NCBI GenBank assembly: GCA_963731045.1
Contig: CAVSVC010000015.1
Coordinates: 27,235-91,234, forward strand
Direction of reading: 5' to 3'
Length of the DNA stretch: 64,000 bases
Source: an uncultured delta proteobacterium
GTDB taxonomy: Bacteria > Desulfobacterota > BSN033 > UBA1163
How positions within the stretch are numbered: the first letter of the stretch is position 1; every line of letters starts with the position of its first letter. The notes below the pieces were generated by a model. The model was not told the origin of the DNA, ran no database searches, and saw only the letters and a program-made list of their open reading frames with translations. The translations under genes were made by a program, and so were the position numbers. Positions 555-29,130 of this stretch are shown piece by piece.

Positions 555-1589
555 ATGAAAAAGAGGACTCTTTTGACGGTATTGGGTACGGCCTGTCTCG
601 TTTTCATGTTTGCAGCTCCGTCCATGGCCCAGGTCATCAAACTGACCCTGGCCGAGCAGAATGCGGAAATGGGGTGGGGGCCGGTGCATGCGGAAAAGCC
701 GTGGGCCAAGAAGATCGAGGATGCCACCAAAGGCCGGGTGAAGATCGACGTCTTTTATGCTCAAACCCTTGCTAAGGGACCGGATATCTTTAATGCGGTG
801 AAGACCGGGGTAGCCGACATGGGGTGGTGTTTTCACGGGTACTGGCCGGACATGACGCCGCTCTCCGACGTCATCACCCTCCCGTCCCTGCCGATCCCTA
901 ATGCGGAGAAGGCCAGTGAGGTGCTTTGGAAACTTTACGAGAGATTTCCTTCTATCCGGAACGAGTACAAAGATGTTCATACGCTTCATCTGTGGGCGAG
1001 CAGCCCGTACTTCCTGATTACGACGAAGAAGCAGGTTAAGACCATCGAAGATATCAAGGGTCTAAAGATCAGGGTCGTTGGAGGTCCTCCGACCGAGCAG
1101 ATGAAGGCGCTCGGAGCCATTCCCACCCTCATCCCCATGCCCGATACCTACCTCGCGATGGACAAGGGAGTGATTGACGGAATGGGAGCACCCTGGGAGG
1201 CCATCCACGGCTTCAGACTCTATGAAATCGCAAAATATTACACCTTGGTTCCGCTCTCCGCCGTCTACTTCTCGATGTCGGTCAATAAGCAGAAATGGGA
1301 TAGCCTGCCCAAGGATATCCAGGAGGCGATTACAAGTGTCAGCGGTCTGGAAGCGGCCAAGTTCTGGGGGAGGAACTGGTTCGATACCGCCCGGGAAGGG
1401 GTCTTGGAGGCCGCCAAGAAGGGAAACTATACGATGAACATGTACTCCGTTCCTCCGGAAGAGGAGGCGAGATGGGCCAAAGTAGCGGGTGAGCCTCTCT
1501 GGAAGGAATGGGTCAAGAAGATGGAGGGCAAGGGCCGCCCGGATGCCCAGCAGGTTCTCAACACGGCCCTCGATTTGCTCAAGAAATGA
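555..1589 (+). CDS. dctP: TRAP transporter substrate-binding protein
   Basis: signal peptide; DIKGLKIRV, ALGAIP and GVIDG motifs; followed by dctQ/dctM. Confidence 0.92.
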   Translation: MKKRTLLTVLGTACLVFMFAAPSMAQVIKLTLAEQNAEMGWGPVHAEKPWAKKIEDATKGRVKIDVFYAQTLAKGPDIFNAVKTGVADMGWCFHGYWPDMTPLSDVITLPSLPIPNAEKASEVLWKLYERFPSIRNEYKDVHTLHLWASSPYFLITTKKQVKTIEDIKGLKIRVVGGPPTEQMKALGAIPTLIPMPDTYLAMDKGVIDGMGAPWEAIHGFRLYEIAKYYTLVPLSAVYFSMSVNKQKWDSLPKDIQEAITSVSGLEAAKFWGRNWFDTAREGVLEAAKKGNYTMNMYSVPPEEEARWAKVAGEPLWKEWVKKMEGKGRPDAQQVLNTALDLLKK

Positions 1590-1636
1590 TTCCCGTCAAA
1601 CAGCGAGAAAGGGGAAGATCATTTACCTGATCTTTG

Positions 1637-1669
1637 TTCGGCCCTTTACTGCATCAGTAAAGGGCCGAA
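1637..1669 (+). terminator. intercistronic hairpin after dctP (mRNA stabiliser or partial terminator)
   Basis: TTCGGCCCTTTACTG-cat-CAGTAAAGGGCCGAA perfect 15-bp stem. Confidence 0.6.
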
Positions 1670-1702
1670 TCTTCATAATTGATTGGAAGGGGTGAAAAAT
1701 CG

Positions 1703-2228
1703 ATGCAGAAGTTGCTCAATGGTTGCGAACGCGTGATGCTTTATGTTTCTGCCATGTCGGCCTTTGTCCTGATGCTGCTGACAACGGCGGATGCAGGGGG
1801 ACGGTATATCTTTAACCGGCCGATCACAGGGGCCTATGAGATTACGACGAACTACCTGATGGTCGCTGCGGTTTTCCTGGCGGTGAGCTACGGCTACCGT
1901 CAGGGCGCTTATATCCGGGTCACCTTCTTGGCGGATCACCTGCCCCGGATGGTGAAGCTCGTGGTGAACTACCTCGTCCAGATGCTCTCCGTGGGTTATG
2001 GGGTCCTGCTCGTGATCGCCACATACCAACAGGCCCTCCGCACCATCGCAACGGGGACGACCCTGAGCAGTCTCGATTTTATTCCGCAGGGTCCCGCCTA
2101 TGTGATCGTTCCTGTGGGCCTCTTTTTCATGTCCCTGGCCATGCTGCTTGACATTCGCAAGGTCAGGAAAGGGACATCTCCTCTCTTCCAGAGAGGAATC
2201 TCCTACCTGCTGTGTAACCGGCAAGTAA
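1703..2228 (+). CDS. dctQ: TRAP small permease; the ORF track reads into dctM, probably from a frameshift near 2190, so the end is approximate
   Basis: GRYIFNRPITGAYE and YIRVTFL DctQ motifs, four hydrophobic segments. Confidence 0.85.
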
Positions 2229-2259
2229 CACAAATGAATTCATTTACGGAGATCAAAAA

Positions 2260-3546
2260 ATGGTTGCTCTGCCTTTTATTGCCATGGTTATCGCTCTTCT
2301 TCTCGGCTTTCCGATCGCTTTTTCTCTCGCCGGGTCCGGCATTCTGGGCATCTATCTCACCACGGGGAGCTGGGCCAAGGTGATGGGGATTCTGGGGATG
2401 GCGCCTTTCACTGCGGTTTCCGATTATTCGCTGACCACCGTCCCCATGTTCATTCTGATGGCCTACTTCTCGGCTTCAAGCGGTCTTGCCCGCGACCTCT
2501 TCAAGGCCGGGGCGAACTGGCTGTCCCATATCCGGGGAGGCCTCGGGGTTGCGACGGTTTTCGCCTGCGGGATCTTCGGGGCCATGTCCGGGGCGAGCGT
2601 TGCCGCGGCCTCCGTCATGTCGACGATTGCTTACCCGGAAATGCGGCGTCACGGTTATTCGGAACAACTGGCAGCGGGCACGGTGGGTATCGGATCGACG
2701 CTTGACATTCTGATCCCGCCGAGCGTTGCCATGGTCATTTACGGCATTGCGACACAGACGTCGATCGCCAAATTGCTTATCGCAGGAACCGTGCCGGGGA
2801 TCATTGTAGGAATCTTTCTGGCAGTCGCCATTTTTGCCTGGGTTCGCATCAGACCCCAGGATGCGCCTGAGACTTACCGTGTGCCCATGGACGAACGCTG
2901 GGCAAGCGTTCGCCGCATCTGGCCAAGCCTTCTCCTGATCCTTGTCGTCGTCATTCTTCTCTACACAGGCATCGTCACCCCGACGGAAGTGGGCGCTATC
3001 GGCGCCTTCATGGCGGCCCTGATCGGGGCGGCGTTTGGCAGTCTCCGATGGCCGGGCATTATTGATGCCCTAAAGATGACCATTCGCACGAGTGCCATGA
3101 TCTTTATGATCATCATCGGCGCAACCATCTTCGGCTATTACATGGCCCTGAGCCGGGTGCCTCAACAGGTCGTCGCAGCGGTGACGGGCATGGACCTCAA
3201 TCGATGGGTTGTCATCATCGGGATTGTCGTGGGTTACTTCGTCATCAGCATGTTCATGGATGAAATCCCGCTCCTCCTCCTCACCCTTCAACTGACATTC
3301 CCGCTCATTACGCACCTCGGCTTCGACCCCATCTGGTTCGGAGTCATGTCGATGATGATGGTGGCCATGGGGCTCGTCTTCCCGCCGGTGGGGATGATTG
3401 CTTTTGTCGTCAGTTCGACGGCGAAGGTAGACCTGGTGAAGGTCTATACGGGGACCAGCGTCCTGATGATCGCCATCTTGATTACGACGATTCTCATCAT
3501 GGTTTTCCCCGCCATCGTTCTCTGGCTTCCTGCAACGATGCGTTAG
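2260..3546 (+). CDS. dctM: TRAP large permease
   Basis: GAMSGAS, LIPPS, TPTEVGA and GFDPIWFG motifs. Confidence 0.93.
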   Translation: MVALPFIAMVIALLLGFPIAFSLAGSGILGIYLTTGSWAKVMGILGMAPFTAVSDYSLTTVPMFILMAYFSASSGLARDLFKAGANWLSHIRGGLGVATVFACGIFGAMSGASVAAASVMSTIAYPEMRRHGYSEQLAAGTVGIGSTLDILIPPSVAMVIYGIATQTSIAKLLIAGTVPGIIVGIFLAVAIFAWVRIRPQDAPETYRVPMDERWASVRRIWPSLLLILVVVILLYTGIVTPTEVGAIGAFMAALIGAAFGSLRWPGIIDALKMTIRTSAMIFMIIIGATIFGYYMALSRVPQQVVAAVTGMDLNRWVVIIGIVVGYFVISMFMDEIPLLLLTLQLTFPLITHLGFDPIWFGVMSMMMVAMGLVFPPVGMIAFVVSSTAKVDLVKVYTGTSVLMIAILITTILIMVFPAIVLWLPATMR

Positions 3547-3767
3547 CCGGACTCCCGGTAACGATAAGACGCTGTCAGGAATGGGGGTGATTTCGGGTCT
3601 TTCACCCCTTTCTTGACCGGCATGTTCCCCGTCAAGGGGCACAAATCCTAATCGATGAAAGAAAGAAACGGTGGTTCCGAAGAGTCGGCCGGAATTGTTG
3701 GGAACGGCGTATATCAGAAAGCCCTTTCCGGGGCTCACAGAGTGGAGAAAGAAGAGAGGTGGGAAGG

Positions 3768-4097
3768 ATGGCCAGGCACGGATTGCTGATCGACTACGAG
3801 TATTGCACGGGATGCCACACCTGCGAGGTGGCCTGTAAACAGGAGCACAATTATCCTGTTGGGAAGTGGGGGATCAAGGTCAACGAGATTGTTCTGGAGA
3901 CCTTCGACAGGATTGCCATCGATTACATCCCCTTTCCGACGGATCTCTGTAACTTATGTATTCAGAGAACCCGGGAGGGGATCCCGCCAGCCTGCGTGAA
4001 GCATTGCCAGGCGGGGTGCATGTCGTACGGGCCTGTCAAAGAGCTGGCTGAAGTGATGGAGAAGAAACCCAAAACCGTTCTCTTTGCGCCGAAATAA
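3768..4097 (+). CDS. short 4Fe-4S dicluster subunit of a molybdopterin oxidoreductase (copy 1)
   Basis: CTGCHTCEVAC and CNLC...PACVKHC motifs; 109 aa; near-identical to 13161..13490. Confidence 0.88.
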   Translation: MARHGLLIDYEYCTGCHTCEVACKQEHNYPVGKWGIKVNEIVLETFDRIAIDYIPFPTDLCNLCIQRTREGIPPACVKHCQAGCMSYGPVKELAEVMEKKPKTVLFAPK

Positions 4098-4213
4098 TGA
4101 TACGAAACCGATCCAAGGATTTGGATTAAGGAGTTTTGGGTTGTTGAACAGGTTTGACAGGGGCATCTTTAGCTGCGTTTTCCATTGTGCCTAACGTGGA
4201 AAGGAGGCTTGAA

Positions 4214-5251
4214 ATGGAGAAAAAGAGAGGACTGCTTACCCTGGTAGGAATTGTCTGCCTTGTCTTCTTCTTTGTGACCTCTGCACCGGCTCAGGTGATC
4301 AAACTGACGCTGGCGGACCAGAACCCCCAGACCGGATGGGGGGGAGTGGAGGCCCTTCAACCCTGGGTCAAGAAAGTTGAGGACGCGACAAAAGGGAAGG
4401 TGAAAATAGATGTCTATTACTCCCAGACACTGGCCAAAGCGCCGGATATCTGGAATGCCGTCAAGACAGGCGTTGCGGACATGGGGTGGTGTTTCCACGG
4501 ATATTGGCCCGACATGACGCCTCTGGCGGACGTGGTTACCCTTCCTTCCCTGCCGTTTAAGAGCGCGGAGAAGGGCAGTGAAGTCCTCTGGAAGCTCTAC
4601 GAGAAGTACCCGGCCATTCAGCATCATTTCAAAGATGTTCATCCCCTCATGCTCTGGACCAGCCATCCTTACATCTTAATCACGACAAAGAAACAGGTTA
4701 AAACCCTTGAGGACATCAAGGGGCTGAAGATCAGGGTGACGGGGGGACCTCCGACAGAGCAGATGAAGGCACTGGGGGCCGTTCCCGTCCTCATGCCCAT
4801 GCCCGACGTCTACCAGGCCATGGACAAAGGGGTCATCGACGGGATGGGGGCGCCGTGGGAACCCATTCTCGCCTACCGGCTTTACGAGGTTGTAAAGTAT
4901 TACACGATTGTGCCCCTTTCTGCGGTCTATTTCTCGATGCCCATCAACAAACAGAAATGGGAGAGCCTCCCCAAGAACGTTCAGGATGACATCACGAGCG
5001 TCAGCGGTCTGGAGGGGGCCAAGTTCTGGGGCCGCAACTTCTTCGACAGGGTCGAAGCCGCCGTCGATGAGACAGTGAAAAAAGGCGGCCATACCATGGT
5101 CAAATATACCGTTCCTCCGGAGGAGGTCGAGAGGTGGACGAGGGTAGCCGGGATGCCGATCTGGAAGGAATGGGTTAAAAAGATGGAAGGCAAAGGGTAT
5201 CCTGAGGCTCAGCAGATCCTCAACACGACCCTCGATCTGCTGAAGAAATAG
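4214..5251 (+). CDS. dctP: TRAP substrate-binding protein, close paralog of 555..1589
   Basis: AAGGAGG RBS before ATG 4214; shares AVKTGVADMGWCFHGYWPDMTPL exactly with the first DctP. Confidence 0.92.
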   Translation: MEKKRGLLTLVGIVCLVFFFVTSAPAQVIKLTLADQNPQTGWGGVEALQPWVKKVEDATKGKVKIDVYYSQTLAKAPDIWNAVKTGVADMGWCFHGYWPDMTPLADVVTLPSLPFKSAEKGSEVLWKLYEKYPAIQHHFKDVHPLMLWTSHPYILITTKKQVKTLEDIKGLKIRVTGGPPTEQMKALGAVPVLMPMPDVYQAMDKGVIDGMGAPWEPILAYRLYEVVKYYTIVPLSAVYFSMPINKQKWESLPKNVQDDITSVSGLEGAKFWGRNFFDRVEAAVDETVKKGGHTMVKYTVPPEEVERWTRVAGMPIWKEWVKKMEGKGYPEAQQILNTTLDLLKK

Positions 5252-5291: not shown

Positions 5292-7541
5292 ATGCACATG
5301 CGGAATAAGAAAGAGGACAAGGGTGTACAAATTGTTAAGATGGGGGCCTGGTCCGGGGGACCGGGCTGTCACGGAGGGTGCGGTGTTGATGTCCATGTTA
5401 AAGATGGCCGGGTCATCAAGGTGGAAGGGGATTCTGACCATCCTTTTCTACAGGGAAGAGCCTGTCCGCGAGTTTTAGCTATGACCCAATTGATGTATCA
5501 CCCCGATCGGTTGAAGTACCCGCTCAAGAGGGTCGGGGAAAGGGGGGAAGGCAAGTGGGCTCGGATCTCCTGGAAAGAGGCCAATGACACCATCTATACC
5601 CGGATGATGGAGATCAAAGAGAAATACGGACCGGAATCGATGGTCTTCGGGCAGGGGACGGGCAGGGATGCGGGGGGACCGATTCTTCTTCTGGCCTATG
5701 CCTACGGAAGTCCGAACTGGACCCTTCTCGGGCTTTCCGGTATCTCCTGCTTTACTCCGAGGCTGGCGGGCATGTATGTCATCGAAGGTGATTTTACCTT
5801 TATGGACGCCGCTCAGTTTTCCCCTCTTCGATATCAGGATCCGGAATGGACTCCGCCCAAATGCCTGATCGTCTGGGGCAGGGAGCCCGTTGCAGGATGT
5901 TCCGACCACTATGCCACAGGCCACTGGATGGTCGATTGCATGAAGCGCGGGACGGAAATCATTGCTGTGGATCCAAGATGCACCTGGATCGCCTCCAGGG
6001 CGAAACTCTGGCTGCAGATCCGTCCCGGAACGGATGGGGCGCTGGCGCTGGGGTTGATGAACATCATCATCAATGAGGGGCTCTACGATAAAGCCTTCGT
6101 AGCGAAATGGGTCCATGGTTTTGAGGAATTGAAAACGAGGGTTCAGGAGTATACTCCGGAACGGGTTTCACACATCACGTGGATCCCCAAGGAGAAGATC
6201 ATCGCAGCGGCGCGGCTCTATGCCGAGAGCAAGCCGGCCGCCATCCAGTGGGGTGTGCCCGTTGACATGAATGCCGAGGCGACCTCCGTAGTCCAGGCCA
6301 TTACGTCACTCTGGTGCATTACGGGAAATCTGGATATTCCCGGAGGAAATGTCATCTGCAGGAGTCCTTTCGGCGTCTCGATCTATCCCTACTCCTCGGA
6401 AGAACTCACTGCGATCTATGGCGAAGCCTTCGTCAAAAAGCTCTCGGAAAAACGGATCGGAGCGGATCGTTATCCCCTGGTGAAGAATTTCAGAGGGTGG
6501 GCCTTATCCGACTCCGTTCTTGAACAGATGGAGACAGGCCAGCCCTATCCGATCAAGGGCATGTGGATCCAGACGAACAATTTCATCGCCTGCGCCGCGG
6601 GGGATCCCCGGCGTCATTACGAGGCCATCCGGAAGCTCGATTTCAACGTTGTTGTGGACCTCTTCATGACCCCCACGGCCCAGGCTGTGGCGGATATCGT
6701 CCTTCCGGCAGGGACCTTTCCAGAAAAGGACTCCGTCTTCTCTACGGGCATTCCCCTCAATGCCATACAGAAAGTGGTGCAGGTGGAAGAATGTAAGTCC
6801 GATTGGGAAATCAACTTCGAGTTGGCCAAGAGATTCAATCCGGAGATCGTCCACTGGAATAATGTGAAAGAGATGTTCTCCGAAAGAATCCGTCCCTCGG
6901 GACTCACGTTTGACGAACTCCGCAAGCAGGCCTGGGCCCTTCCGCCCAAAGGCCACCCCTCGGGAACCGCTCCGTACCGAAGGTACGAAGTGGGACTGCT
7001 TCGCCCGGATAAGAAGCCCGGCTTCCGAACTCCGACCGGTAAGATCGAGGTCTACTCCACCACCCTGGAGTCCTATGGCCTTGATCCGCTTCCTTACTTC
7101 GAGGAACCTCCGGAGAGTCCTTTGCGGACGCCCCAGATCTGGAAGGAATTTCCCCTGATCATGATGACCGGAAGACGGTCTCCTGTGCTCTTCCACAGCG
7201 AACATCGTCAGATTCCGTGGCTCCGAGAAATCGATCCTGACCCCATCGTGGAGATCCATCCGGAGACGGCCCGGGCCCTGGGGATCGAAAACGGGAACTG
7301 GGTCTGGATTGAAGGAAGACGGGGGCGGGTGAAGCGGAAGGCGAAACTCACTCCGATCGTCCATCCGAAAATGGTCATGGTTCCCCACGGGTGGTGGCTG
7401 CCGGAAAAGGAAGGAAAGGATCATCTCTATCACGTGTGGGATATCAATGTGAACCAGCTTATCCCGATGGGATGTCAGAGCAGATCCGGGTTCGGGGGCG
7501 GTCCTTACAAATCGATGCTCTGCAAGATCTATAAGGTGTAG
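5292..7541 (+). CDS. Mo/W-bisPGD oxidoreductase catalytic subunit, acetylene hydratase/catechol dehydroxylase branch (paralog 1), no Tat signal
   Basis: CHGGC...CPR Fe-S region, HPDRLKYPLKR, ISW, IRPGTDGALAL, ADIVLP and FHSEHR motifs; candidate Cys ligand in SCFTPR. Confidence 0.9.
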   Translation: MHMRNKKEDKGVQIVKMGAWSGGPGCHGGCGVDVHVKDGRVIKVEGDSDHPFLQGRACPRVLAMTQLMYHPDRLKYPLKRVGERGEGKWARISWKEANDTIYTRMMEIKEKYGPESMVFGQGTGRDAGGPILLLAYAYGSPNWTLLGLSGISCFTPRLAGMYVIEGDFTFMDAAQFSPLRYQDPEWTPPKCLIVWGREPVAGCSDHYATGHWMVDCMKRGTEIIAVDPRCTWIASRAKLWLQIRPGTDGALALGLMNIIINEGLYDKAFVAKWVHGFEELKTRVQEYTPERVSHITWIPKEKIIAAARLYAESKPAAIQWGVPVDMNAEATSVVQAITSLWCITGNLDIPGGNVICRSPFGVSIYPYSSEELTAIYGEAFVKKLSEKRIGADRYPLVKNFRGWALSDSVLEQMETGQPYPIKGMWIQTNNFIACAAGDPRRHYEAIRKLDFNVVVDLFMTPTAQAVADIVLPAGTFPEKDSVFSTGIPLNAIQKVVQVEECKSDWEINFELAKRFNPEIVHWNNVKEMFSERIRPSGLTFDELRKQAWALPPKGHPSGTAPYRRYEVGLLRPDKKPGFRTPTGKIEVYSTTLESYGLDPLPYFEEPPESPLRTPQIWKEFPLIMMTGRRSPVLFHSEHRQIPWLREIDPDPIVEIHPETARALGIENGNWVWIEGRRGRVKRKAKLTPIVHPKMVMVPHGWWLPEKEGKDHLYHVWDINVNQLIPMGCQSRSGFGGGPYKSMLCKIYKV

Positions 7542-7580
7542 TAGATTGATTCCAAAATACCATAACAACGGCAGATTCTT

Positions 7581-7646
7581 GTAGCCGCAGGCTTTAGCCT
7601 GCGAAAAATGGCTGCCAGACCAACGCAACCTAAAGGTTGCGGCTAC
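7581..7646. repeat. GTAG-type REP doublet (REPIN-like)
   Basis: GTAGCCGCAGGCTTTAGCCTGCG ... CGCAACCTAAAGGTTGCGGCTAC inverted pair, each arm an internal hairpin. Confidence 0.75.
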
Positions 7647-7729
7647 CAATCCATTGAGACAACAATTAGGAAACGTTCTGAGTCGTCTGCCGAAATCTCG
7701 GAAAAGAATTCGCCTGAAAGGAGGAAATC

Positions 7730-8705
7730 ATGAAGTATTTCATTCCCATTCTCGGTCTCGTGTCTGATGATCCTTGGGTTGAGCGTTGGAGCTACAGCGC
7801 TCAAAGCACAGTCCTACCCCGCTTATCCCATTCAGGTGGTTGTTCCCAATGACCCGGGGTCAGCAGGAGATCTGGCTGCAAGGTACTTTGTCGAAGAGTT
7901 GAGCAAGACGTTGAAAGGGTCCGCTGTCGTCCTGAATAAGCCGGGTGGGTCCTCTACCCTGGGGACGGATTATGTCGTGAAGAGCAAGAAGGACGGTTAT
8001 ACCCTTCTTTATGCAAATACCTCCGCCGTGGTCTATGCAAGGGCCACAAACCCGGAGATCGTACCGTACGATCCAGTCAAGGATCTCGACCCCCTCGGTT
8101 TCCACTGTATTCTCACACTGACGGTGACGGTCCGAGGAGATGCCCCCTGGAAGACCTTCAATGAAATGATCGACCATGCCAAGAAGAACCCGGGGACGGT
8201 CCGGTTCGGGATTCACGGCCAGGGAACGATCGATCATTTCAATCTTGAACTGATCAAGGCATGGACAGGCGCACAATTTAACGTTATCCCGTTCAAGGGG
8301 ACAGCTGCGACGACAACGGCCCTGCTGGGCGGGCATGTGGATGCCACGGTCATCGTCAATAGCCTGGTGACCCCCCATGTGAATGCCGGTAGACTGAAAC
8401 TGCTCCTCCTCACCAACAAGATGCGTGAATACCCCAATGTCCCGATGATCACGGAAGTGGGATACAAACAGAATCTGCTCTCGCCATGGTTCGGTTGGTT
8501 TGCTGCGGCTGGGACCCCTGAGGAGGCGAAGAAGGTTCTCATCCCGGCCATCGAGAAGACGACGAAGATCCCGGATTTGATCCAAAAGATCGAGAAACTT
8601 GGATTGCTTTCGGATTATAGGTCGCCTGAAGAGCTGAAGAAGACGATGATGAGCGACTATGAAACCGCCCGGGCCCTGGCCGTAAAGCTGGGTCTGGCCA
8701 AGTGA
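7730..8705 (+). CDS. tripartite tricarboxylate transporter (Bug/TctC family) substrate-binding protein; frameshift within the signal peptide near 7765
   Basis: AGGAGG RBS + ATG 7730; YPAYPIQVVVP, NKPGG, DGYTLL, LLGGHVD and PNVP Bug motifs. Confidence 0.88.
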
Positions 8706-8846
8706 TCGTTATAAGAGGTTACGGTTACGAAGCCCGTTTCGCTACAGGAAGGATGGTTACGGTTTAGCTCCAAGCCGAACAACGTAGCCGGATGACGATA
8801 CGGGCATCGTTACCGTTGCCGTCAGACGAAATCTTTGTTCTTGACC

Positions 8847-9083
8847 TCAGGGGATTTGAGGTTTCTTCAGAGGCGGGATCAAGGGCTTGTCCGTCATTTT
8901 CCCCATCTTATCCTCACTCAACTTGAACTGCGCGGGATAGAGGTCTTTGTTTCGAATCTCTTCTTTCTCGGTGTTTCTCCAGACGAAATTGCAGCGTCCG
9001 CATCGATACAGTTCCCATGCCCTGTCCCGCGGGGCCTCGAAGAATTTGATCCCTTCATCTTTTTCGCATCTCGGACAGAACAC
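8847..9083 (-). CDS. bsdD: hydroxyarylic acid decarboxylase small subunit D (BsdD/VdcD-like zinc-binding protein)
   Basis: CPRC...WELYRCGRCNFVWRNTE; C-terminal IPPL; directly downstream of the BsdC-like gene. Confidence 0.85.
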   Translation of the reverse strand: MFCPRCEKDEGIKFFEAPRDRAWELYRCGRCNFVWRNTEKEEIRNKDLYPAQFKLSEDKMGKMTDKPLIPPLKKPQIP

Positions 9084-9105
9084 GGGGGCCTCCTTACCCG
9101 TTCGA

Positions 9106-9177
9106 CGGCACTAAACCCGGGGGTTTAGTGCCGCTCAGGGTCTACTCTGAGCAAGCCCCGGCATTTATGCCGGGGAG
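9106..9177. repeat. miniature palindromic element overlapping the bsdC 3' end and the bsdC-bsdD spacer
   Basis: CGGCACTAAACCC-GG-GGGTTTAGTGCCG and CCCCGGCATTTATGCCGGGG hairpins linked by CTCAGGGTCTACTCTGAG. Confidence 0.6.
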
Positions 9178-10596
9178 CCGATGAGTTGATTTCTTCATTA
9201 AGCGTTTCAGCTCCTCGACCCACTCCGGTGCTTCTTTGGGTGGGGTAAGGAGGGAGAGACTCTCGAGTGGAAGATCAGGCGGAACAGGTTTGGTGGCGTC
9301 CAGGATCATGCGGGTCGTCAGACCTCGCGGGTGTCCCGTGGGGTCGAGAGTGGAGATCGGGGCGTTGGGAATGAGGACCAGATCCCTGTCCGCCCTGAAT
9401 CGGGTCACCAGGGCCCACATGACCTCGTTCAGGTTGAAAGGATCGATATCCTCATCCACGATCACGATGAATTTCGGATAGGCCAGTCCGTGGGGGGTTG
9501 CCAGGAGCTTTGCCCCGATGATCTTTCCGTAACCCGCTACTCTTGTCTTTGTTGAGACGATGGTGCCATACCCGTGACAGTACATGGCATTGACCGAGAC
9601 AACCTCCGGGGCCATGGCCTTGAGCTGTTTATAGAGGGTGACGCTGGTGACGAGGCCCACGATGTAGTCGTGCTCCGTCCAGGGCTTTCCGATATACAGA
9701 TTTTCAAAGATCAGGGGATCCCTTCTTCGCGTGACGGCTTTGATTTTGATTTCCGCCTGTTTGAAGGTTGCCGAATAGAACCCCGTATACTCTCCAAACG
9801 GTCCTTCAATCGTCCTGACTCTGGGGAGGATCTCCCCTTCCAGAATGATTTCAGCACCGGCGGGCACCATGAGGTCGACGGTTTCCCCCTGAATGATCTC
9901 TGCAGGCTCTCCTCTCAACGCCCCGGCCATCTCGTATTCATCTTCGTCATATTGCAGGGGCATCCCTCCCACCAGGGTGATGATCGGATCGTTTCCCAAA
10001 GCGATGGCCACGGGAAGGGGTTGATTCAATTCCTCCGCCTTTCTGAGATGGATTGCAATATCGTGCTGGGGAGAGGCCTGAATGCCGAGGCGGTCTTTAT
10101 CCATGACCTGGACGCGGTAGATGCCGACATTCTGGTTCCTGGGGTTCTCCGGGTCTTTACTGATGACGATGGCTTTTGAGAGATAAGGCCCCCCGTCGTA
10201 TTCATTGATCCGGAAGAGAGGGAGGATATCGAAGAGATTGATATCCTTTGTAAGAACAAGTTCTTTTAAGGGGGAGTGAGAAACCACTCTCGGAGGGACG
10301 GGGAACCGGTCGCATTTCTTGGCGACTTCATGGAACAACCCCTGCAGGGGGGTGTCGATCGGGAGGTCCAGCATCAATGCGTAATTCCGCCAGGACCCGT
10401 GAACATTCATGACGACCTTCTTCTGCTCATAGCCCCGTATTTTCTCAAACAGAATCGCCGGCCGGTTTGGAAACTCTCCTGCCGCGCAACTGGCAGCCCC
10501 GATGTCCGGTTCGGGAAGGACCTCCCTCTCAACCCTCAACAACTGTCCCGCTGATTCCAACCTTGTCAGGAAATCCCTGAGATCTCTATAAGGCAT
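9142..10596 (-). CDS. bsdC: prFMN-dependent UbiD-family decarboxylase, BsdC/VdcC (4-hydroxybenzoate/vanillate-type) subgroup
   Basis: start MPYRDLRDFL; NVHGSW, DGGPY, GIYR, EGPFGE, DEDIDP and DATKP motifs. Confidence 0.88.
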   Translation of the reverse strand: MPYRDLRDFLTRLESAGQLLRVEREVLPEPDIGAASCAAGEFPNRPAILFEKIRGYEQKKVVMNVHGSWRNYALMLDLPIDTPLQGLFHEVAKKCDRFPVPPRVVSHSPLKELVLTKDINLFDILPLFRINEYDGGPYLSKAIVISKDPENPRNQNVGIYRVQVMDKDRLGIQASPQHDIAIHLRKAEELNQPLPVAIALGNDPIITLVGGMPLQYDEDEYEMAGALRGEPAEIIQGETVDLMVPAGAEIILEGEILPRVRTIEGPFGEYTGFYSATFKQAEIKIKAVTRRRDPLIFENLYIGKPWTEHDYIVGLVTSVTLYKQLKAMAPEVVSVNAMYCHGYGTIVSTKTRVAGYGKIIGAKLLATPHGLAYPKFIVIVDEDIDPFNLNEVMWALVTRFRADRDLVLIPNAPISTLDPTGHPRGLTTRMILDATKPVPPDLPLESLSLLTPPKEAPEWVEELKRLMKKSTHRLPGINAGACSE

Positions 10597-10798
10597 AAGT
10601 TCCTCTTCTTTTGAAAGCCGCAAATCCTACCGGTATCTGTGTCTTCTTTTGACCCCCATTACTGTTAGCGTGCTCAGACAAATTTGTCAAGACATTTCGT
10701 ACCACATCTCCAGGGTCTTTCCGACAGCCCCTCCCAGCCGGATCCCATCCTGAAACTCCACCCGTAACCGAAGGGTGAATTCGCTTCCAGAGGCCATG

Positions 10799-10827
10799 TT
10801 GATTTTGAATGAACATTGTGATATAAG
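10799..10827 (+). promoter_or_regulatory. sigma70-type promoter for Mo enzyme paralog 2, sharing a 19-bp motif with the promoter at 339-368
   Basis: TTGATT-N17-TATAAG; AATGAACATTGTGATATAA versus AATTAACATTGTGATATAA. Confidence 0.55.
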
Positions 10828-10905
10828 CCTCTCAACACTGGCACGTTGGTTGGAAAATAGGCTAAAAATAGGTTTATATGTTTTTTTCATGAAGGAGAAG
10901 AGAAA

Positions 10906-13155
10906 ATGGCCAAGAAAGAGGGAGAAGAGAAGGTTGTTCGGACGACGGTCTGGTCTCCAGGAGCGGGATGCCACGGCGGATGCGGCGTGAAGCTCATCGT
11001 CAAGAACGGGAGACTTGAAAAGGTGGAGGGGGATGAAAACCATCCCTGGAATCAGGGGAGACTCTGCCCGCGGGCGCTCGCCCTGACGCAGTATGTCTAC
11101 CATCCCGATCGGCTGCTGTACCCTGTGAAGCGGTCAGGGGAAAGAGGGGAAGGTAAATGGACCCGGATTTCGTGGGACGAGGCGCTCGATACGATTGAAA
11201 AGAAGTTTAAGGAGATCCGGGATCAACATGGAGCGGAGTCCGTCCTCTTCTGCCAGGGAACGGGCAGAGACGTCGGGGGCCCGATCTCATTTCTGGCCTA
11301 TGCGTACGGGAGCCCGAACTGGGTGCAACTTGGTCTGGCGGGTCAGTCCTGTTATACGCCCCGGCTGGGGGCGATGTTTGCGACGATGGGGGACTACGCG
11401 GTTATGGATGCGGGCCAGTTTGACGCAAAGCGCTACGATGCGCCCGAATGGAAACCTCCGAAATGCGTCATCGTCTGGGCGACCAATCCCGTTCCGACGT
11501 GCCCGGATGCGTTTCACGGCCACTGGGTGGTGGAATGCATGAAACGGGGGGCCAAAGTGATCACCGTGGACGCCCGCACGACCTGGATGGCGTCGCGTTC
11601 AGAGATCCATCTGCAGATCCGGCCGGGAACGGACGGGGCCCTGGCCCTGGCGATGGCCCATGTGATCATCAACGAAAAACTCTATGACAAGGCCTTTGTG
11701 GATAAGTGGACTTACGGGTTCGACGAATTGAAGCAGCGGGTTCAGGAGTTTACGCCGGAGCGGGCGTCGAGCATCACCTGGGCGCCGAAAGAGTTGATCA
11801 TCAAGGCGGCCCGGCTCTATGCGGAGAGCAAGCCGGCAGCGATCCACTGGGGTCTGCCCGTGGACATGTGTCCGGAGGGGACCACGGTGGCCCAGGCGAT
11901 CACGCATCTCTGGTGTCTGACGGGGAATGTGGACAATCCGGGCGGTAATGTGATTGCCAGGCCGGCCTTCGGGGTGACGACCTATCCATTTTCCTCTCAT
12001 GAACTGACAGGCCTTTACGGCGAGGAATTCGTCAAGAAACTGACAGCGAAGAGGATCGGGGCGCCGGAATATCCGATGATTGCAAACTTCAGGGGATGGG
12101 CACAGCCGGACCTGGCCGTGGATCAGATCCTGACAGGCAATCCTTATCCAATCAAGGCCGCGTGGATCCAGACGACCAACATCCTGGGCGGCCAGGCGGC
12201 GGACACCCGGAAACACTATGAGGCCCTGAAGAAACTGGAATTCAACGTGGTGGTGGATACCTTCCACAACCCGACGACCATGGCCGTGGCGGATATCGTG
12301 CTTCCGGCAGCCTCCTTTCCCGAAAAGGAGAGCTTCCGGTCGTGGTGGTCTCCTCTGAGCGTGGTGGTTCCGGCCATCAAGGTCGGGGAGTGCAGGTCCG
12401 ACTGGGAGATCAACCTGGAACTGGCCCGGCGGTTCAACCCGGAGGCAATTAAGTATAAGAGCGTTAAAGAACTGATCGATGACCGGCTCAAGCCGGCAGG
12501 GACGACCTTTGATGAAATGGCGGCCCGGGGGAGCTGGATGATGCCTCCGGAGGGGCATATGTCGAAACCCTACCGGCGCCATGAAAAGGGCCTGCTCCGT
12601 GGGGACGGGAAGCCCGGGTTCAACACCCCGACGGGGAAGATCGAGTTCTGGTCGAAGAAATACGAGGAGTGGGGAATGGATCCCCTTCCCTACTATGAAG
12701 AGCCTCCGGAGAGCGAGGTGAGGACGCCTGAGCTGTTCAGGGAATATCCCCTGATCATGGCGACGGGAAGAAGATCCTCGGTCTACTTTCATGCGGAGCA
12801 CCGGATGATTCCTTGGATGCGGGAGATCGATCCGGATCCGGTGATCGAGATCAACACACAGACGGCGGCCGATCTCGGGATCGAAAACGGAGAGTGGGTC
12901 TATATCGAAAACAAGCGGGGAAGGATCAAGAGGAAGGCGGTCGTGACGCCGACGATCCATCCGAAGGTCGTGATGGTTCCCCATGGCTGGTGGCTGCCCG
13001 AGACCGATGGACGGGAACCGAACCTCTTCGGGATCTGGGAGATCAACTGCAATGTCTTGACCCCGACGGGAACGCAGAGCCGGTCGGGATTCGGAGGCGG
13101 AGCCTATAAGACAACCCTTTGCAGGGTGCGCAAAATCGAGAAAGAAGCGAGGTGA
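10906..13155 (+). CDS. Mo/W-bisPGD oxidoreductase catalytic subunit, acetylene hydratase/catechol dehydroxylase branch (paralog 2)
   Basis: same length (749 aa) and motifs as 5292..7541; SCYTPR candidate Cys ligand. Confidence 0.9.
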   Translation: MAKKEGEEKVVRTTVWSPGAGCHGGCGVKLIVKNGRLEKVEGDENHPWNQGRLCPRALALTQYVYHPDRLLYPVKRSGERGEGKWTRISWDEALDTIEKKFKEIRDQHGAESVLFCQGTGRDVGGPISFLAYAYGSPNWVQLGLAGQSCYTPRLGAMFATMGDYAVMDAGQFDAKRYDAPEWKPPKCVIVWATNPVPTCPDAFHGHWVVECMKRGAKVITVDARTTWMASRSEIHLQIRPGTDGALALAMAHVIINEKLYDKAFVDKWTYGFDELKQRVQEFTPERASSITWAPKELIIKAARLYAESKPAAIHWGLPVDMCPEGTTVAQAITHLWCLTGNVDNPGGNVIARPAFGVTTYPFSSHELTGLYGEEFVKKLTAKRIGAPEYPMIANFRGWAQPDLAVDQILTGNPYPIKAAWIQTTNILGGQAADTRKHYEALKKLEFNVVVDTFHNPTTMAVADIVLPAASFPEKESFRSWWSPLSVVVPAIKVGECRSDWEINLELARRFNPEAIKYKSVKELIDDRLKPAGTTFDEMAARGSWMMPPEGHMSKPYRRHEKGLLRGDGKPGFNTPTGKIEFWSKKYEEWGMDPLPYYEEPPESEVRTPELFREYPLIMATGRRSSVYFHAEHRMIPWMREIDPDPVIEINTQTAADLGIENGEWVYIENKRGRIKRKAVVTPTIHPKVVMVPHGWWLPETDGREPNLFGIWEINCNVLTPTGTQSRSGFGGGAYKTTLCRVRKIEKEAR

Positions 13156-13160
13156 GAAGG

Positions 13161-13490
13161 ATGGCCAGACACGGATTGCTGATTGACTACGAATATTGTA
13201 CAGGATGCCATACCTGCGAGGTGGCCTGCAAACAAGAACACAATTATCCTGTCGGCAAGTGGGGGATCAAGGTCAACGAGATCGTCCTGGAGACCTTCGA
13301 CAAGATTGCCATCGATTACATCCCCTTTCCGACGGATCTCTGTAACTTATGCGTCCAGAGGACCCGGGAAGGCATCCCGCCGGCCTGCGTGAAGCATTGC
13401 CAGGCAGGGTGCATGTCGTACGGGCCGGTCAAGGAACTGGCTGAAGCGATGGAGAAGAAACCCAAGACTGTTCTCTTTGCGCCGAAGTGA
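13161..13490 (+). CDS. short 4Fe-4S dicluster subunit (copy 2)
   Basis: ATG 5 bp after the catalytic subunit stop; two Fe-S Cys motifs. Confidence 0.9.
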   Translation: MARHGLLIDYEYCTGCHTCEVACKQEHNYPVGKWGIKVNEIVLETFDKIAIDYIPFPTDLCNLCVQRTREGIPPACVKHCQAGCMSYGPVKELAEAMEKKPKTVLFAPK

Positions 13491-13663: not shown

Positions 13664-16199
13664 ATGTCAGAGCAGATCTTTACAACCTGTGAGGTCGGAG
13701 GACCCCTCTTCGTCCACGTGAAGGACGGGAAGATCGTTCGGGTTCGACCGATGCGACTGAGCAAGGAGGACACCGGGCCCTGGACAATCGAAGTCAATGG
13801 TAAGAAGTATTCTCCTCCCAGGAAGACCACCCTGAGCACCTACACCCTTGCCGAAAGGAACCGGATCTATTCGGAGGATCGGGTGGCCTATCCGAGAAGG
13901 AGGGTCGATTTCGATCCGAACGGCGACCGGCACCCCGAAAACCGGGGGAAGTCCCCTTATGTTCGAATCAGCTGGGACGAGGCCCTGGACACCGTTTCGA
14001 AAGAGATCAAACGAGTTCAGACAACGTACGGTCAGGCAGCCGTCTCCGCCTTGACGTCGTCCCACCATAACTGGGGAAATGTCGGCTACAAGCGGAGCGC
14101 CTTCGGCCGGTTCTTCAACCTCCTCGGATTTACGGATGTCTTTGACAATCCGGACAGCTGGGAGGGGTGGCACTGGGGATCGATCCATACCTATGGGTTT
14201 TACTGGAGACTCGGCTGTCCGGAGCAGTACGACCTTCTGGAAGACGCCATGAAGAACACCGATCTCTTCGTCTTCTGGTCCCATGACCCCGATTCGACCA
14301 AGGGCGGCTATGCGGCCCAGGAATCGGCCATCTGGCGTGTCTGGCTCAACGAGATGGGGAAGAAGATGGTCTTCATCGATCCTTTCTGCAACTACACGGC
14401 CGTCCGGATGGGAGACAAGTGGCTTGCCCCCCGGCCCGGAACGGATGCGGCCCTGGCGGAGGCGATTGCGTACGTGTGGTTTGACGAGGATACCTACGAC
14501 AAGAGCTTCGTCGAGGGCCGCACGATCGGAATTGAGGAATTTAAGAAGCACATTCTCGGGAAGACGGACGGCATCAAGAGAACCCCCAGATGGGCTGAAG
14601 GCATCACAGGCGTGAGGGCCCCCACCATCCATGCCCTGGCGAGAGAGTGGGCGTCGAAGCGGACGATGCTGGGATGCGGAGCCCGCGGAGGTTTCGGCGG
14701 GGCATGCCGAACTTCTTATGGCCACGAGTGGGCCCGTCTGATGGTCTACCTGCAGGCCATGCAGGGGCTTGGAAAACCCGGGGTCAATATCTGGTCTGCG
14801 GTCCAGGGAGCCCCCTACAACGGTCAGTTCTACTTCCCGGGCTATGCGGATCCGATGGGCAGAATCACCGGGGACGGAAACCCGGACCACGTGGCAAAGC
14901 TGACAGCCGTGAATCCGGTCGAGCAGAAGCTTTATCGCACCCTGTTTCCGGATGCGATCCTGAATCCGCCCATAAACTGGATGGGAGAAGGATTCTGCGG
15001 CCAGTCGATCGAACAGCAGTTCATTCCTTACACCTATCCGATGCCGGGCCAGCCCGAGGTCAAACTCTTCTACCGTTACGGCGGTTCGTTTATGGGCACG
15101 ATGACCGATACAAACAAGTGGGTCCGGGCTTACCAGAGCCCGAAGCTGGAGATGGTCGTCAACCAGAACGTCTGGATGGATCCGGAAACGAAGATGGCCG
15201 ACATCATCTTTCCGGCCTGTACGAACTTTGAGAGAAACGACATCGCCGAGTTCAGCAACATGGGAGGTTACTCCAATCACGCCTCGCTCGGATGCAATTA
15301 CCGGATCATCGTCTACGAGAAGAAGTGCATCGAACCCATAGGAGAATCCAAGTCCGACCTCGAGATCTTCACGCTCCTTGCCGACCGGCTCGGGTTCAAA
15401 GATGATTTTACGGATGGCGGGAAGACGGAAGAGGACTGGATCCGGAAGCAGTACGATGTCTCCGACCTGCCCAAATACGTCTCCTACGAGGATTTCAAGA
15501 AGAAAGGTTATTTCGTCGTCCCCCTTCCGGAGAACTACAAACCCACGCCGGCCCTGCGCTGGTTTAATGAGGGGAGGAGGCGTGACACGCCGGATTCCCT
15601 GGCTCCCGACCCGGATAAGAAAGAAGGCCTGGGATCGTACAGCGGAAAGATCGAATTCGTCTCCCAGAGTCTTCTGAAGCATTTTCCGAAGGACAAAGAG
15701 CGGCCGCCCATGGCGAGGTACATCCCGAGTTGGGAAGGGCATGAATCAGCCCTGGCCAAGAAGTATCCCATTCAGATGATCTCTCCCCATCCGCGCTATT
15801 CCTATCACACGCATTATGATGCCCACTGCGAATGGCTTGCCGATATCCCGGGACACCGGATCCGCAAGAACGGGCACAACTGGATCGTGATCCGTGTCAA
15901 TCCCGAGCAGGCCGCGGAACGCGGAATCCGGCACGGAGACATCATCAAGGTCTTTAACGATCGCGGTGTGGTTCTTGGAATGGCCCAGATCACGGAGCGC
16001 GTGAGACCCGGCCTGATTCACTGTTATGCCTCTTCAGGAAAATATGATCCCCTTGAACCGGGCAAGCGCCGGCAGTCCAGACCGGGGCGGATGTGTGGCT
16101 ATCCTGACTCCCCTCCGGATGATGTCTAAGAACGCCCCCGGCATGGCCAGCAACACTTGCCTTGTTGAGATTGCGAAGTGGGATGGAGGAGAAGAATGA
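13664..16199 (+). CDS. athL: pyrogallol-phloroglucinol transhydroxylase large subunit-like Mo-bisPGD enzyme; extra base near 16067, corrected C-terminus ...DRGGCVAILT...VEIAKWDGGEE
   Basis: GGPLFVHVKDGKI, SSHHNWGNVGY, NPDSWEGWHWG (Ser ligand), WRLGCPEQYDLLED and PACTNFER, collinear with Pelobacter AthL as I recall it. Confidence 0.9.
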
Positions 16200-17038
16200 G
16201 CAACTACGGAATGATCATCGATTTGGAGAAGTGCTCCGGCTGCTACAACTGTTTTATGGCCTGCCGGGACGAACATTACGGAAACGACTATCCGCCGATC
16301 TCTTTGGGGCAGCCCTTTACAGGACATTTCTGGATGCGGATCCTTGAGAAGGAAAGAGGAACGTATCCCAAGGTCAAGGTGTCCATCATCCCCAAACCCT
16401 GTATGCATTGCGACGATCCGCCCTGCGCCAAGGTCGCCCTGAACGGAGCGATCTACAAGAGACCGGACGGCGCTGTGATCATCGACCCGGTGAAATCGGC
16501 GGGACAGAAAGAAATTGTCTCTTCGTGTCCTCACCGGGTGATCTTCTGGAACGAGGAGAAGAACGTACCCCAGAAGTGCACACTCTGCGCGCACATGCTC
16601 GATCAGGGGGAACCGGAGCCCCGGTGCGTGGAGGCCTGTCCGACGGGCGCCCTTCTTTTCGGAGATCTCGATGATCCCAAGAGTGAGATCTCAAAGATCT
16701 GGAAATCCGAAAAGGCCGAGGCGTTTCATCCCGAATTCGGCCTCAAGCCCAGGGTGAAGTACATCGGAATTCCCAAGAGGTTTGTGGCAGGCACGGTCCT
16801 GTACAAGGACAAAGATCTATGCGCAGAGAATGCCAAGGTCACCCTGACAGGCGGTGGAAAGAAACTGGCTGCCAGGACGAACAATTTCGGTGACTTCGAG
16901 TTTGAGGGTCTGGAGGAGGGTAAGGAGTTCAGCGTCAAAGTTGAGCATGCCGGCTATCAGCCTGAATCCTTCAAGGTCCAGACCAAGGTGGACGTGTATC
17001 TTGGGGAGATACCCCTGAAACGGGCTTCCAAGAAGTAG
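16196..17038 (+). CDS. bthL: transhydroxylase small (Fe-S) subunit-like protein with a C-terminal beta-sandwich domain
   Basis: ATGA overlap with the athL stop; CYNCFMACRDEH, PCMHCDDPPC, CTLCAH, TNNFGDFEF. Confidence 0.9.
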   Translation: MSNYGMIIDLEKCSGCYNCFMACRDEHYGNDYPPISLGQPFTGHFWMRILEKERGTYPKVKVSIIPKPCMHCDDPPCAKVALNGAIYKRPDGAVIIDPVKSAGQKEIVSSCPHRVIFWNEEKNVPQKCTLCAHMLDQGEPEPRCVEACPTGALLFGDLDDPKSEISKIWKSEKAEAFHPEFGLKPRVKYIGIPKRFVAGTVLYKDKDLCAENAKVTLTGGGKKLAARTNNFGDFEFEGLEEGKEFSVKVEHAGYQPESFKVQTKVDVYLGEIPLKRASKK

Positions 17039-17328
17039 ACTGGGGAAGAAGCTTTTTCCAGCCTTTCCGCCGAATCTGTTGTGGTTCTTTTCTGTAACCC
17101 TTTCGGGAGCCGTCATCCATGCGCTGGATGGCGGCTCCTGTCTCCTATGACACTCCAGCATGGGACGCTCCTTCTTTTGCTCTCCCCTGTCGCTTTTTCT
17201 CACAAACAATCAAGGATTTCTCGTGCGGGAAAATCCGAGTAAGCTCCTTTACGAAGCGGAACTCAGCAAACATCTTCACCCAATATCACAGATTCTTCAA
17301 ATCTCTTGCGGATAGAAAGGAGGCTGGC

Positions 17329-19690: not shown

Positions 19691-19717
19691 ACGGTTAAGG
19701 TGATCGTCAGTCTTTGC

Positions 19718-19750
19718 TCGGCCTGGTGAAAGAGTCTCTCACCAGGCCGA
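19718..19750 (+). terminator. hairpin after the SBP gene
   Basis: TCGGCCTGGTGA...TCACCAGGCCGA stem. Confidence 0.55.
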
Positions 19751-19794
19751 ATAATCTTAAATCCTCTTTATTGAATCTATAGGAAGCGAGGAAT

Positions 19795-26097: not shown

Positions 26098-26133
26098 CCC
26101 CTTCAGGTCTTGGGAGAGAACTAATTTCTGATT

Positions 26134-26170
26134 CCCTCTCCCCTGGCGGGAGAGGGCAAGGGTGAGGGGG
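26134..26170. repeat. REP-like element (CCCTCTCCC...GGGAGAGGG..GGGTGAGGG class)
   Basis: ccctctcccctggcgggagagggcaagggtgaggggg. Confidence 0.6.
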
Positions 26171-26299
26171 CCATGTCATTACCATGGTGAGTCCCTTTAT
26201 ACCTGGCTCAACTTCAATGTTGTGATAAGTCGAACCTATCTTAAAGTGGAGTTTCATTTAGGTTGGAGACGGGTGGTCTGTCCAATACTTTCTTGAAGA

Positions 26300-27430: not shown

Positions 27431-27436
27431 TAAGAC

Positions 27437-27487: not shown

Positions 27488-27516
27488 ATGGTGGTCTTGT
27501 TTGGACATGAAGGACA

Positions 27517-29070: not shown

Positions 29071-29130
29071 CACGGGGGCGGGTAGATCTCTTCCACCGTA
29101 ACCGAAGGGTTACAACAAAAAGGGGAAGAT

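Follow-up and report, generated by a model that had tools for sequence, protein, structure and literature searches.

Two types of molybdenum (Mo) dehydroxylase are described in the literature, with 29% identity between the types for Cldh and Dadh (PMC7028382). Eggerthella-type enzymes (Dadh, Cadh and E. lenta Hcdh) are characterized by a signal for twin-arginine translocation (Tat), three subunits, a membrane anchor, a four-cluster beta subunit and a length of ~1000-1200 amino acids (aa). Gordonibacter-type enzymes (Cldh, Dodh, Gp Hcdh and Eadh1/2; the term is that of bioRxiv 10.1101/2025.01.17.632430) are soluble alpha-beta proteins with a catalytic subunit of ~750-800 aa. In eLife in 2020, Dodh and like enzymes of G. 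pamelaeae were reported to be smaller, to lack a Tat signal and to have a small 4Fe-4S protein encoded next to them, under the name ‘smaller Cldh-like enzymes’ (PMC7028382). Gp Hcdh has two subunits, with a Tat-less catalytic subunit of 770 aa that is 17% identical to E. lenta Hcdh (PMC11585353), and Gordonibacter enzymes are described as alpha-beta and as lacking the iron-sulfur (Fe-S) motif of the Eggerthella catalytic subunits (PMC11574389). Acetylene hydratase (AH) is named as the closest characterized relative of these enzymes (PMC7028382). The present analysis concerns two paralogous Mo enzyme genes, MoA and MoB, and their ferredoxin genes, fdxA and fdxB, in 64,000 nt of DNA from an uncultured delta proteobacterium (assembly GCA_963731045.1, contig CAVSVC010000015.1, positions 27,235 to 91,234 of the forward strand), a stretch called the window below. 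There is good support, from their clade, sequence signature, partner subunit and lack of a Tat signal, for placing MoA and MoB in the Gordonibacter-type branch. With moderate confidence, MoA-fdxA and MoB-fdxB are proposed to dehydroxylate reductively the ring of hydroxyaromatic acids like gallate, protocatechuate or hydrocaffeate. The four genes are as follows.

3768-4097, forward strand: fdxA, ferredoxin-like partner of 109 aa with 9 Cys, two-cluster type (Fer4_11/Fer4 matches), 1.2 kb upstream of MoA
5292-7541, forward strand: MoA (P0001), catalytic subunit of the bis-molybdopterin guanine dinucleotide (bis-MGD) kind, with Cys153, Asp205, His27 and Cys203; member of a 16-leaf environmental subclade
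10906-13155, forward strand: MoB (P0002), bis-MGD catalytic subunit, with Cys149, Asp201, His23 and Cys199; member of the same 16-leaf subclade
13161-13490, forward strand: fdxB, ferredoxin-like partner of 109 aa with 9 Cys, starting 6 nt past the MoB stop

Both catalytic subunits are intact (749 aa each, by translation of the window genes) and share 62% identity (464/745). Both match Pfam Molybdop_Fe4S4, Molybdopterin and Molydop_binding, the architecture of the bis-MGD dimethyl sulfoxide (DMSO) reductase family. The candidate metal ligand lies in SCFTPR at residues 152-157 of MoA (Cys153) and in SCYTPR at 148-153 of MoB (Cys149). It is followed by an Asp in WGREPVAGCSD (195-205; Asp205) or WATNPVPTCPD (191-201; Asp201), and a motif script gave a Cys-to-Asp spacing of exactly 52 in both proteins. 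The motif CHGGC occupies residues 26-30 of MoA and 22-26 of MoB. A first-pass annotation of the window had named the Cys-ligand/Asp pair as the mark of catechol dehydroxylases, and every motif that it listed, with the spacing, was found where it had been given.

Family placement was approached by an exhaustive HMMER search with MoB, which listed 150 representatives of 50%-identity clusters at 360-1040 bits, all above the score of AH. The two window proteins and 128 of these 150 best representatives, the other 22 having lengths outside 640-900 aa, make up a set of 130 sequences. In the tree of this set, MoA and MoB fall in a 24-leaf clade (support 0.99) with three hallmarks, namely a W-S-x-P-G-C-H N-terminus, C-[YF]-x-P-R and an Asp-bearing P-D-G insert, and the AH-like representatives fall elsewhere. 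A Tat-bearing tree neighbour, P0274, is a Raoultibacter phocaeensis protein and gave entry into Eggerthellaceae genomes; a search of genome contigs with P0274, which returned five loci, served only as a handle on this group. MoB has matches at E<=1e-150 in 25 of the 61 Eggerthellaceae genomes sampled (up to 50% identity and 759 bits). One Raoultibacter timonensis genome alone holds 30 end-to-end matches (40-49% identity; best 740 bits, 2.1e-222), and identity to uncharacterized Gordonibacter paralogs is 40-48%; the operational cut-off in the literature is >30% identity to a characterized dehydroxylase. At a threshold of >=90%, G024 proteins share clusters with those of Gordonibacter pamelaeae and Gordonibacter sp. 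28C, and proteins of genome G060 with those of Gordonibacter faecis/avicola.

A larger tree combines the 128 representatives and two window proteins with 12 near homologues (picked from 120), 17 Gordonibacter and 9 Raoultibacter proteins, giving 168 sequences (MAFFT alignment, columns with <50% gaps, FastTree LG+G, Shimodaira-Hasegawa-like (SH-like) supports, midpoint root). MoA, MoB and all 26 soluble paralogs of the Eggerthellaceae (Gordonibacter/Raoultibacter) share a 61-leaf clade with support 1.0, and a 76-leaf superclade (0.93) adds P0274 and 14 other neighbours. The AH-like pair falls in the opposite half of the tree. Within the 61-leaf clade, MoA and MoB lie in the 16-leaf environmental subclade (0.995), with named members from Moorella sulfitireducens, Clostridiales bacterium PH28_bin88, Desulfitobacteriia, Firmicutes ‘associated with bss3’, Desulfatiglandales and Dehalococcoidales; all 26 Eggerthellaceae proteins lie in its 45-leaf sister. 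The clades are the same in tree versions with and without a spurious out-of-frame open reading frame (ORF), RAOU_L013.

The 61-leaf clade has a distinct signature, here counted in columns of an earlier alignment whose outside set (n = 108) includes RAOU_L013. The column of Asp201 holds Asp in 59 and Glu in 2 of the 61 members, versus Asp in 7/108 and a gap in 83/108 outside the clade. Spacing from the ligand Cys is 52 in 43 members (both Glu rows included) and 53 in 15; spacings of 50, 54 and 41 occur once each, the last in a truncated row that lacks the Cys. The ligand is followed by P-R (Pro152 and Arg153 of MoB) in 60/61 members, His23 is found in 57/61, and Asp168, Asp402, Trp315 and Glu631 are further clade-specific residues. 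With the Asp column, the spacing and P-R kept in most of the 61 members, the Cys...Asp pattern is not due to chance. The N-terminal element, as W-[ST]-x-P-G-C/D-H, is present in 19/19 Gordonibacter ORFs examined. It goes with a degenerate proximal Fe-S motif, in which the first cluster Cys, kept in 103/130 family sequences (alignment column), is replaced by Val15 in MoB and Ala19 in MoA. An insert of 3-4 residues (S-x-P-G) stands ahead of MoB Cys22, and only Cys22, Cys26 and Cys54 are left of the N-terminal cluster cysteines of MoB. In three Dehalococcoidia members (P0061, P0065 and P0111), the N-terminal Cys is shifted by two residues (G-C-G-S-H versus G-x-G-C-H), and in some Gordonibacter/Raoultibacter members it is exchanged for Asp (P-G-D-H). 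Not even the cluster Cys that remains is thus fixed in the family.

Comparison with AH of Pelobacter acetylenicus (2E7Z) specifies what is shared and what is not. AH is the best solved-structure match of MoB in a search of Protein Data Bank (PDB) chains (7.3e-85, 289 bits), and no dehydroxylase-named chain occurs among the 52 PDB matches to MoB at E<=1e-10. Native AH numbers are the chain index +3, an offset set by the ‘C-D’ pair found at index 9-10 (Cys12-Asp13), and the numbering, with Cys141 as the tungsten (W) ligand, follows PMC12096430. In the HMMER alignment, MoB Cys149 pairs with Cys141 (chain index 138), and His23, equivalent to His27 of MoA, pairs with the catalytic Asp13, after the second cluster Cys. 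W315 and W482 of MoB are the kept equivalents of Trp293 and Trp472. Trp179, which belongs to the second shell of the active site and forms a hydrogen bond to Asp13 (PMC7970554), has its aligned counterpart in Cys199, two residues before Asp201. As Asp201 sits two residues past this Trp179 equivalent, its location in the active site is plausible. The ligand column is Cys in 128/130 family sequences; being common to these and to AH, the ligand Cys cannot tell dehydroxylases from AH. Hence, of the Cys-ligand/Asp signature proposed by the first-pass annotation, C-x-x-P-R and the Asp at +52 (W-x9-D) do typify the clade, and the ligand Cys, found in AH as well, does not discriminate.

The same comparison bears on the idea that MoA and MoB are acetylene hydratases or other non-redox hydratases. 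The match to AH as closest solved structure, within a common DMSO reductase-family fold, and the conserved Cys ligand and Trp293/Trp472 equivalents speak for it. Nevertheless, it is close to refuted, given that Asp13 is replaced by His, the four-Cys N-terminal motif of AH is broken by loss of the first cluster Cys with the 3-4 residue insert, and a P-D-G/A insert follows the Trp179 equivalent. AH has no redox partner subunit, whereas a dedicated ferredoxin is conserved here. AH-like representatives keep C-D-I-x-C, lie in a separate clade and can score far higher against 2e7z (607 bits for P0266) than the 289 bits of MoB, and all 150 listed representatives (>=360 bits) outscore AH against MoB. 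The first-pass verdict that these are not acetylene hydratases thus holds.

No Tat signal is found in MoA or MoB, in line with the first-pass annotation. An RR motif is lacking, conservation at the N-terminus sets in at residue 16-26, and open frames of 765 and 764 codons leave at most 16 codons upstream of the starts, so that there is no room for such a signal. The other features of Eggerthella-type enzymes listed above are likewise missing from MoA and MoB; the two groups share the 76-leaf superclade, if P0274 stands for the Eggerthella type, and the same reaction class according to the papers cited. No NCBIfam model reaches its cut-off with either protein, the best being Fdh-alpha (296 bits; cut-off 666) and PhsA (281-292 bits; cut-off 694). 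These matches, and PsrA among the PDB chains (9.9e-68), are what one would expect if the enzymes reduced an inorganic or small S/N-oxide substrate, such as those of the polysulfide/thiosulfate, formate or DMSO reductases. Such a function is nonetheless very improbable, as the NCBIfam scores are far below cut-off, the enzymes are located in the cytoplasm and no gene for a membrane anchor lies close by, and both the clade placement and the aromatic-acid context of the genes point elsewhere.

The partner subunit is the most constant companion of these catalytic subunits. A gene for a ~110-aa ferredoxin adjoins the Mo gene in 28/28 Eggerthellaceae paralog loci fetched (41-57% identity to fdxB) and in 7/8 loci of environmental relatives, and among the neighbour genes scanned around MoA and MoB there is no family of the membrane-anchor type. 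The small soluble Fe-S partner noticed at first pass is accordingly present twice, adjoining MoB and somewhat before MoA. The fdxA and fdxB proteins are 97% identical, whereas MoA and MoB are only 62% identical; their genes differ at 30/330 nt, corresponding to 26 synonymous and 3 non-synonymous codons. When positions 3708-4097 and 13101-13490 of the window are compared, the 60 nt upstream of fdxA match the 3' end of MoB at 73% identity, and resemble a remnant left by a Mo gene that was lost or displaced. As for another candidate, the hydroxyhydroquinone dehydrogenase BtdLS, it was rejected because its architecture does not match: BtdS is a DoxX-type membrane protein instead of a small ferredoxin (PMC10084136).

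Altogether, the likeness to Gordonibacter-type enzymes covers the soluble alpha-beta organization without Tat signal, subunit length, the adjoining ferredoxin gene, the degenerate W-S-x-P-G-C-H, C-x-x-P-R and an Asp 52-53 residues past the ligand Cys, within one 61-leaf clade and at 40-50% identity to uncharacterized paralogs. The differences concern phylogeny and setting. MoA and MoB belong to a separate 16-leaf environmental subclade of metagenome-assembled genomes (MAGs) from Firmicutes, Desulfobacterota and Chloroflexota, with Cys instead of Asn at residue 199. The host genome, a Thermodesulfobacteriota MAG, has two copies and not dozens, and the window has TRAP (tripartite ATP-independent periplasmic), TctC and Liv transporters, whereas gut clusters are described with MFS and LuxR genes.

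MoA and MoB sit in a block of ~25 kb together with aromatic-acid and uptake genes, listed here.

555-3546, forward strand: TRAP transporter for carboxylate uptake, with DctP 555-1589, DctQ 1679-2383 and DctM 2260-3546 (Pfam 6e-43, 3.5e-24 and 2e-78)
4154-5251, forward strand: second DctP-type solute-binding protein (Pfam DctP 1.5e-40; NCBIfam TRAP_S1 above cut-off)
7767-8705, forward strand: binding protein of the TctC family (tripartite tricarboxylate transporter; Pfam TctC 3e-46)
8847-9083, reverse strand: VdcD, small subunit of a non-oxidative hydroxyarylic acid decarboxylase (NCBIfam NF041205, 80.4 bits, cut-off 30)
9142-10623, reverse strand: VdcC/UbiD-type hydroxyarylic acid decarboxylase (NF041204 VdcC, 648.2 bits, cut-off 650; TIGR00148, 403.6 bits, cut-off 244.85)
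13664-17038, forward strand: Mo enzyme pair of the pyrogallol hydroxytransferase type, AthL-like 13664-16129 and BthL-like 16178-17038 (Pfam AhtL-like_1st 5e-23; PDB 4v4c_A 1.5e-251, 840 bits)
17119-18279, forward strand: SMP-30/gluconolactonase/LRE-like (SGL) beta-propeller protein (Pfam SGL 1.7e-29)
18449-23083, forward strand: Liv-type ABC importer, with binding protein, permeases and two ATPases (Peripla_BP_6, BPD_transp_2, ABC_tran)
23320-25104, forward strand: old yellow enzyme (OYE)-type Fe-S flavoenzyme of the BaiCD/bilirubin-reductase/enoate-reductase kind (Oxidored_FMN 2.6e-57, and Pyr_redox_2)

VdcC also matches PDB 7ae4, a ‘phenolic acid decarboxylase’, at 4.9e-167. The AthL/BthL pair, just downstream of MoB-fdxB, is homologous to pyrogallol-phloroglucinol transhydroxylase (4V4C), which like MoA and MoB in the proposed function is a Mo enzyme acting on polyhydroxybenzenes; yet it belongs to a different branch of the family, and 4V4C is not among the 52 PDB matches to MoB at E<=1e-10. 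This context counts for a dehydroxylase function. A Gordonibacter cluster described for ellagic acid likewise comprises two such dehydroxylases, a decarboxylase and transporters (bioRxiv 10.1101/2025.01.17.632430). The TRAP, TctC and Liv systems, VdcCD and the transhydroxylase also favour hydroxylated aromatic acids as substrates.

Some details of the block stand apart from this. The first Liv permease gene (19844-20639) looks split: a 246-aa ORF matches the BPD_transp_2 model (269 positions) at 28-150 only, and overlapping ORFs accompany it, which may reflect a frameshift or an assembly error. NCBIfam matches of the OYE-type flavoenzyme are all below cut-off and end near model position 506 of ~641, and a 131-aa ORF in another frame overlaps the end of its gene (window 23320-25324), making a frameshift in this BaiCD-like gene possible. 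Past 26 kb, the GC content falls from 0.55-0.57 to 0.48-0.50. The region 26000-34000, with a DUF4143 gene (26241-26999, reverse strand) and a gene for an 811-aa HEAT/TPR/SEC-C protein (30953-33388), is probably the edge of the catabolic island. Further on (33695-48640) are a second, partly truncated TRAP set, in which the DctM match covers 156/413 model positions, an acyl-CoA dehydrogenase, an AMP-ligase fragment, another Liv-type ABC system and a B12-binding radical SAM protein.

Reductive dehydroxylation is thus proposed on the grounds of homology to Gordonibacter-type paralogs, far above that to AH (up to 759 versus 289 bits), together with the clade, its hallmarks, the ferredoxin partner, the gene context and the position of the Asp. 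What is inferred about the reaction and its substrates, about what His and Asp do and about the route of the electrons is as follows. The locus would encode two paralogous cytoplasmic two-subunit enzymes, in which the alpha subunit would carry bis-MGD Mo (or W) on Cys153/149 and a degenerate proximal Fe-S site, and the beta subunit would be the 109-aa two-cluster ferredoxin. Aromatic acids, brought in by the TRAP, TctC and Liv systems encoded next to these genes, would bind to the reduced metal through a hydroxyl group. His23 and Asp201, as conserved acid/base residues, may act as proton relays that assist tautomerization and protonation. The oxygen would pass to the metal, and two electrons would return via the ferredoxin subunit. 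The sequence of events follows an oxygen-atom-transfer scheme that has been proposed for Dadh (PMC7028382). Products, or parallel substrates, might then reach the VdcCD decarboxylase and the AthL/BthL transhydroxylase of the same island. An essential Cys/Asp pair in Gp Hcdh, named in the first-pass annotation, is not confirmed by the main text of PMC11585353, where no word starts with ‘Asp’ or ‘mutagenesis’.

Several points weigh against this assignment. The window genes form a sister lineage outside the gut radiation: they join the 45-leaf sister at a support of only 0.83, and the last common node of the 26 Eggerthellaceae proteins (41 leaves, 0.95) excludes them. The first-pass reading is partly borne out, in that MoA and MoB do group with Gordonibacter/Raoultibacter paralogs with AH-like sequences outside, on a branch beside the gut enzymes and not among them. 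The trees are FastTree trees with SH-like supports and a midpoint root, and their 168 sequences do not include the characterized Dodh, Cldh, Gp Hcdh and Dadh. None of five accessions of characterized enzymes surfaced in cluster look-ups of 30 proteins, where the names returned were Gordonibacter, Raoultibacter and Adlercreutzia. Residue 199 is Cys in 16/16 members of the environmental subclade versus Asn in 43/45 other clade members, and the subclade differs at ~20 further positions, so that its substrate class may differ from that of the gut enzymes. The decarboxylase partner UbiX/VdcB (TIGR00421) has no match in the host genome, which being 82% complete does not establish its absence. Nor is the context conserved, as TRAP genes are found in 2/8 loci of relatives, AthL/BthL in 1/8 and a UbiD-like gene in 1/8. 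Moreover, in a Mo-ferredoxin branch of 56% identity, all three loci (L060, L061 and L062, in genomes G229, G407 and G454) are flanked by genes for an Fe-alcohol dehydrogenase (Fe-ADH) and a tungsten-type aldehyde:ferredoxin oxidoreductase (AOR), which hints at a different substrate or electron-donor module. Finally, one family member dehydroxylates corticoids, which are not catechols (PMC11574389).

An alternative is that MoA and MoB are enzymes of the same family and architecture that catalyse another oxygen-atom-transfer reaction or use another substrate class. Options include non-catechol dehydroxylation (of an alpha-ketol, phenol or hydroquinone), water-dependent ring hydroxylation in the reverse direction, and an aldehyde- or alcohol-linked reaction. 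This alternative, unlikely but to be taken seriously, is favoured by the subclade-specific residues in or near the predicted pocket (Cys199, and Thr151 and Leu154 by the ligand Cys), by the AOR and Fe-ADH flanks of the 56% branch, by homologues named ‘associated with bss3’ in a Firmicutes MAG and by the corticoid precedent. It is countered by an acid/base and ligand signature equal to that of the Gordonibacter paralogs, and by window neighbours that are enzymes of hydroxyaromatic acids, not AOR or ADH. Some relatives do retain parts of the arrangement: G081 has the same DctPQM-DctP-Mo-fdx gene order, and G064 keeps the AthL/BthL pair next to its MoB-fdx ortholog. As the ferredoxin adjoins in 7/8 loci while other neighbours vary, the conserved unit is the Mo subunit with its ferredoxin, and a pathway that varies around it is what a family of many substrates would show. 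At one of the relatives' loci (L053, G081:C26, 14881-18257), an 88% orthologue is followed by a second, partial Mo copy (306 aa, 88%) with internal TAG/TAA.

The host is an 82%-complete Thermodesulfobacteriota MAG with no clade member besides MoA and MoB. Its RpoB is 85-88% identical to Syntrophaceae, Thermodesulfobacteriota and Desulfobacterota MAG proteins; dsrA was not found, an absence that at this completeness is not established. RpoB places the host outside the Coriobacteriia, in line with the first-pass suggestion of environmental dehydroxylases beyond the gut. The suggestion itself was already in print, since PMC7028382 lists putative environmental homologues in Azoarcus, Thauera, Desulfobacula, Geobacter, Desulfomonile, Desulfitobacterium and Streptomyces. 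An environmental pair of putative dehydroxylases of the Gordonibacter type, in a polyphenol-degradation island, is in this sense a sound find of a kind already anticipated. The nearest named homologues of MoB are from Firmicutes (79%). True orthologues (86-88%) occur in 2 of the 40 relatives searched, and matches at E<=1e-230 in 5/401 genomes of a phylum sample, own genome included. Such patchiness, in combination with identity that stays high from phylum to phylum, speaks for lateral transfer, and suggests that the Mo genes of this Thermodesulfobacteriota host, with their nearest named homologues in Firmicutes, were acquired in this way.

Of most interest are the environmental subclade with Cys199 and its association with a decarboxylase and a transhydroxylase. 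It is tempting to speculate, though the idea is doubtful, that this subclade is a distinct class serving catabolic funnelling, not respiration, in free-living anaerobes. Its members would remove a hydroxyl from gallate/pyrogallol-type compounds so that, with VdcCD and AthL/BthL, diverse polyphenols of plants are channelled into the phloroglucinol route of ring cleavage, and the island as a whole would be passed on laterally among Firmicutes, Desulfobacterota and Chloroflexota. The Cys/His/Asp signature and the Cys199/Asn split offer specific residues as targets for studying the mechanism of a family with no solved structure among the PDB chains searched. If MoA and MoB are active dehydroxylases, a reaction whose study has so far been confined to Coriobacteriia of the human gut would extend to sediment-type bacteria related to syntrophs and sulfate reducers. 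Dehydroxylation would then be tied to the classical anaerobic trihydroxybenzene pathway, with a bearing on the oxygen-free mineralization of tannins and lignin-derived phenolics.

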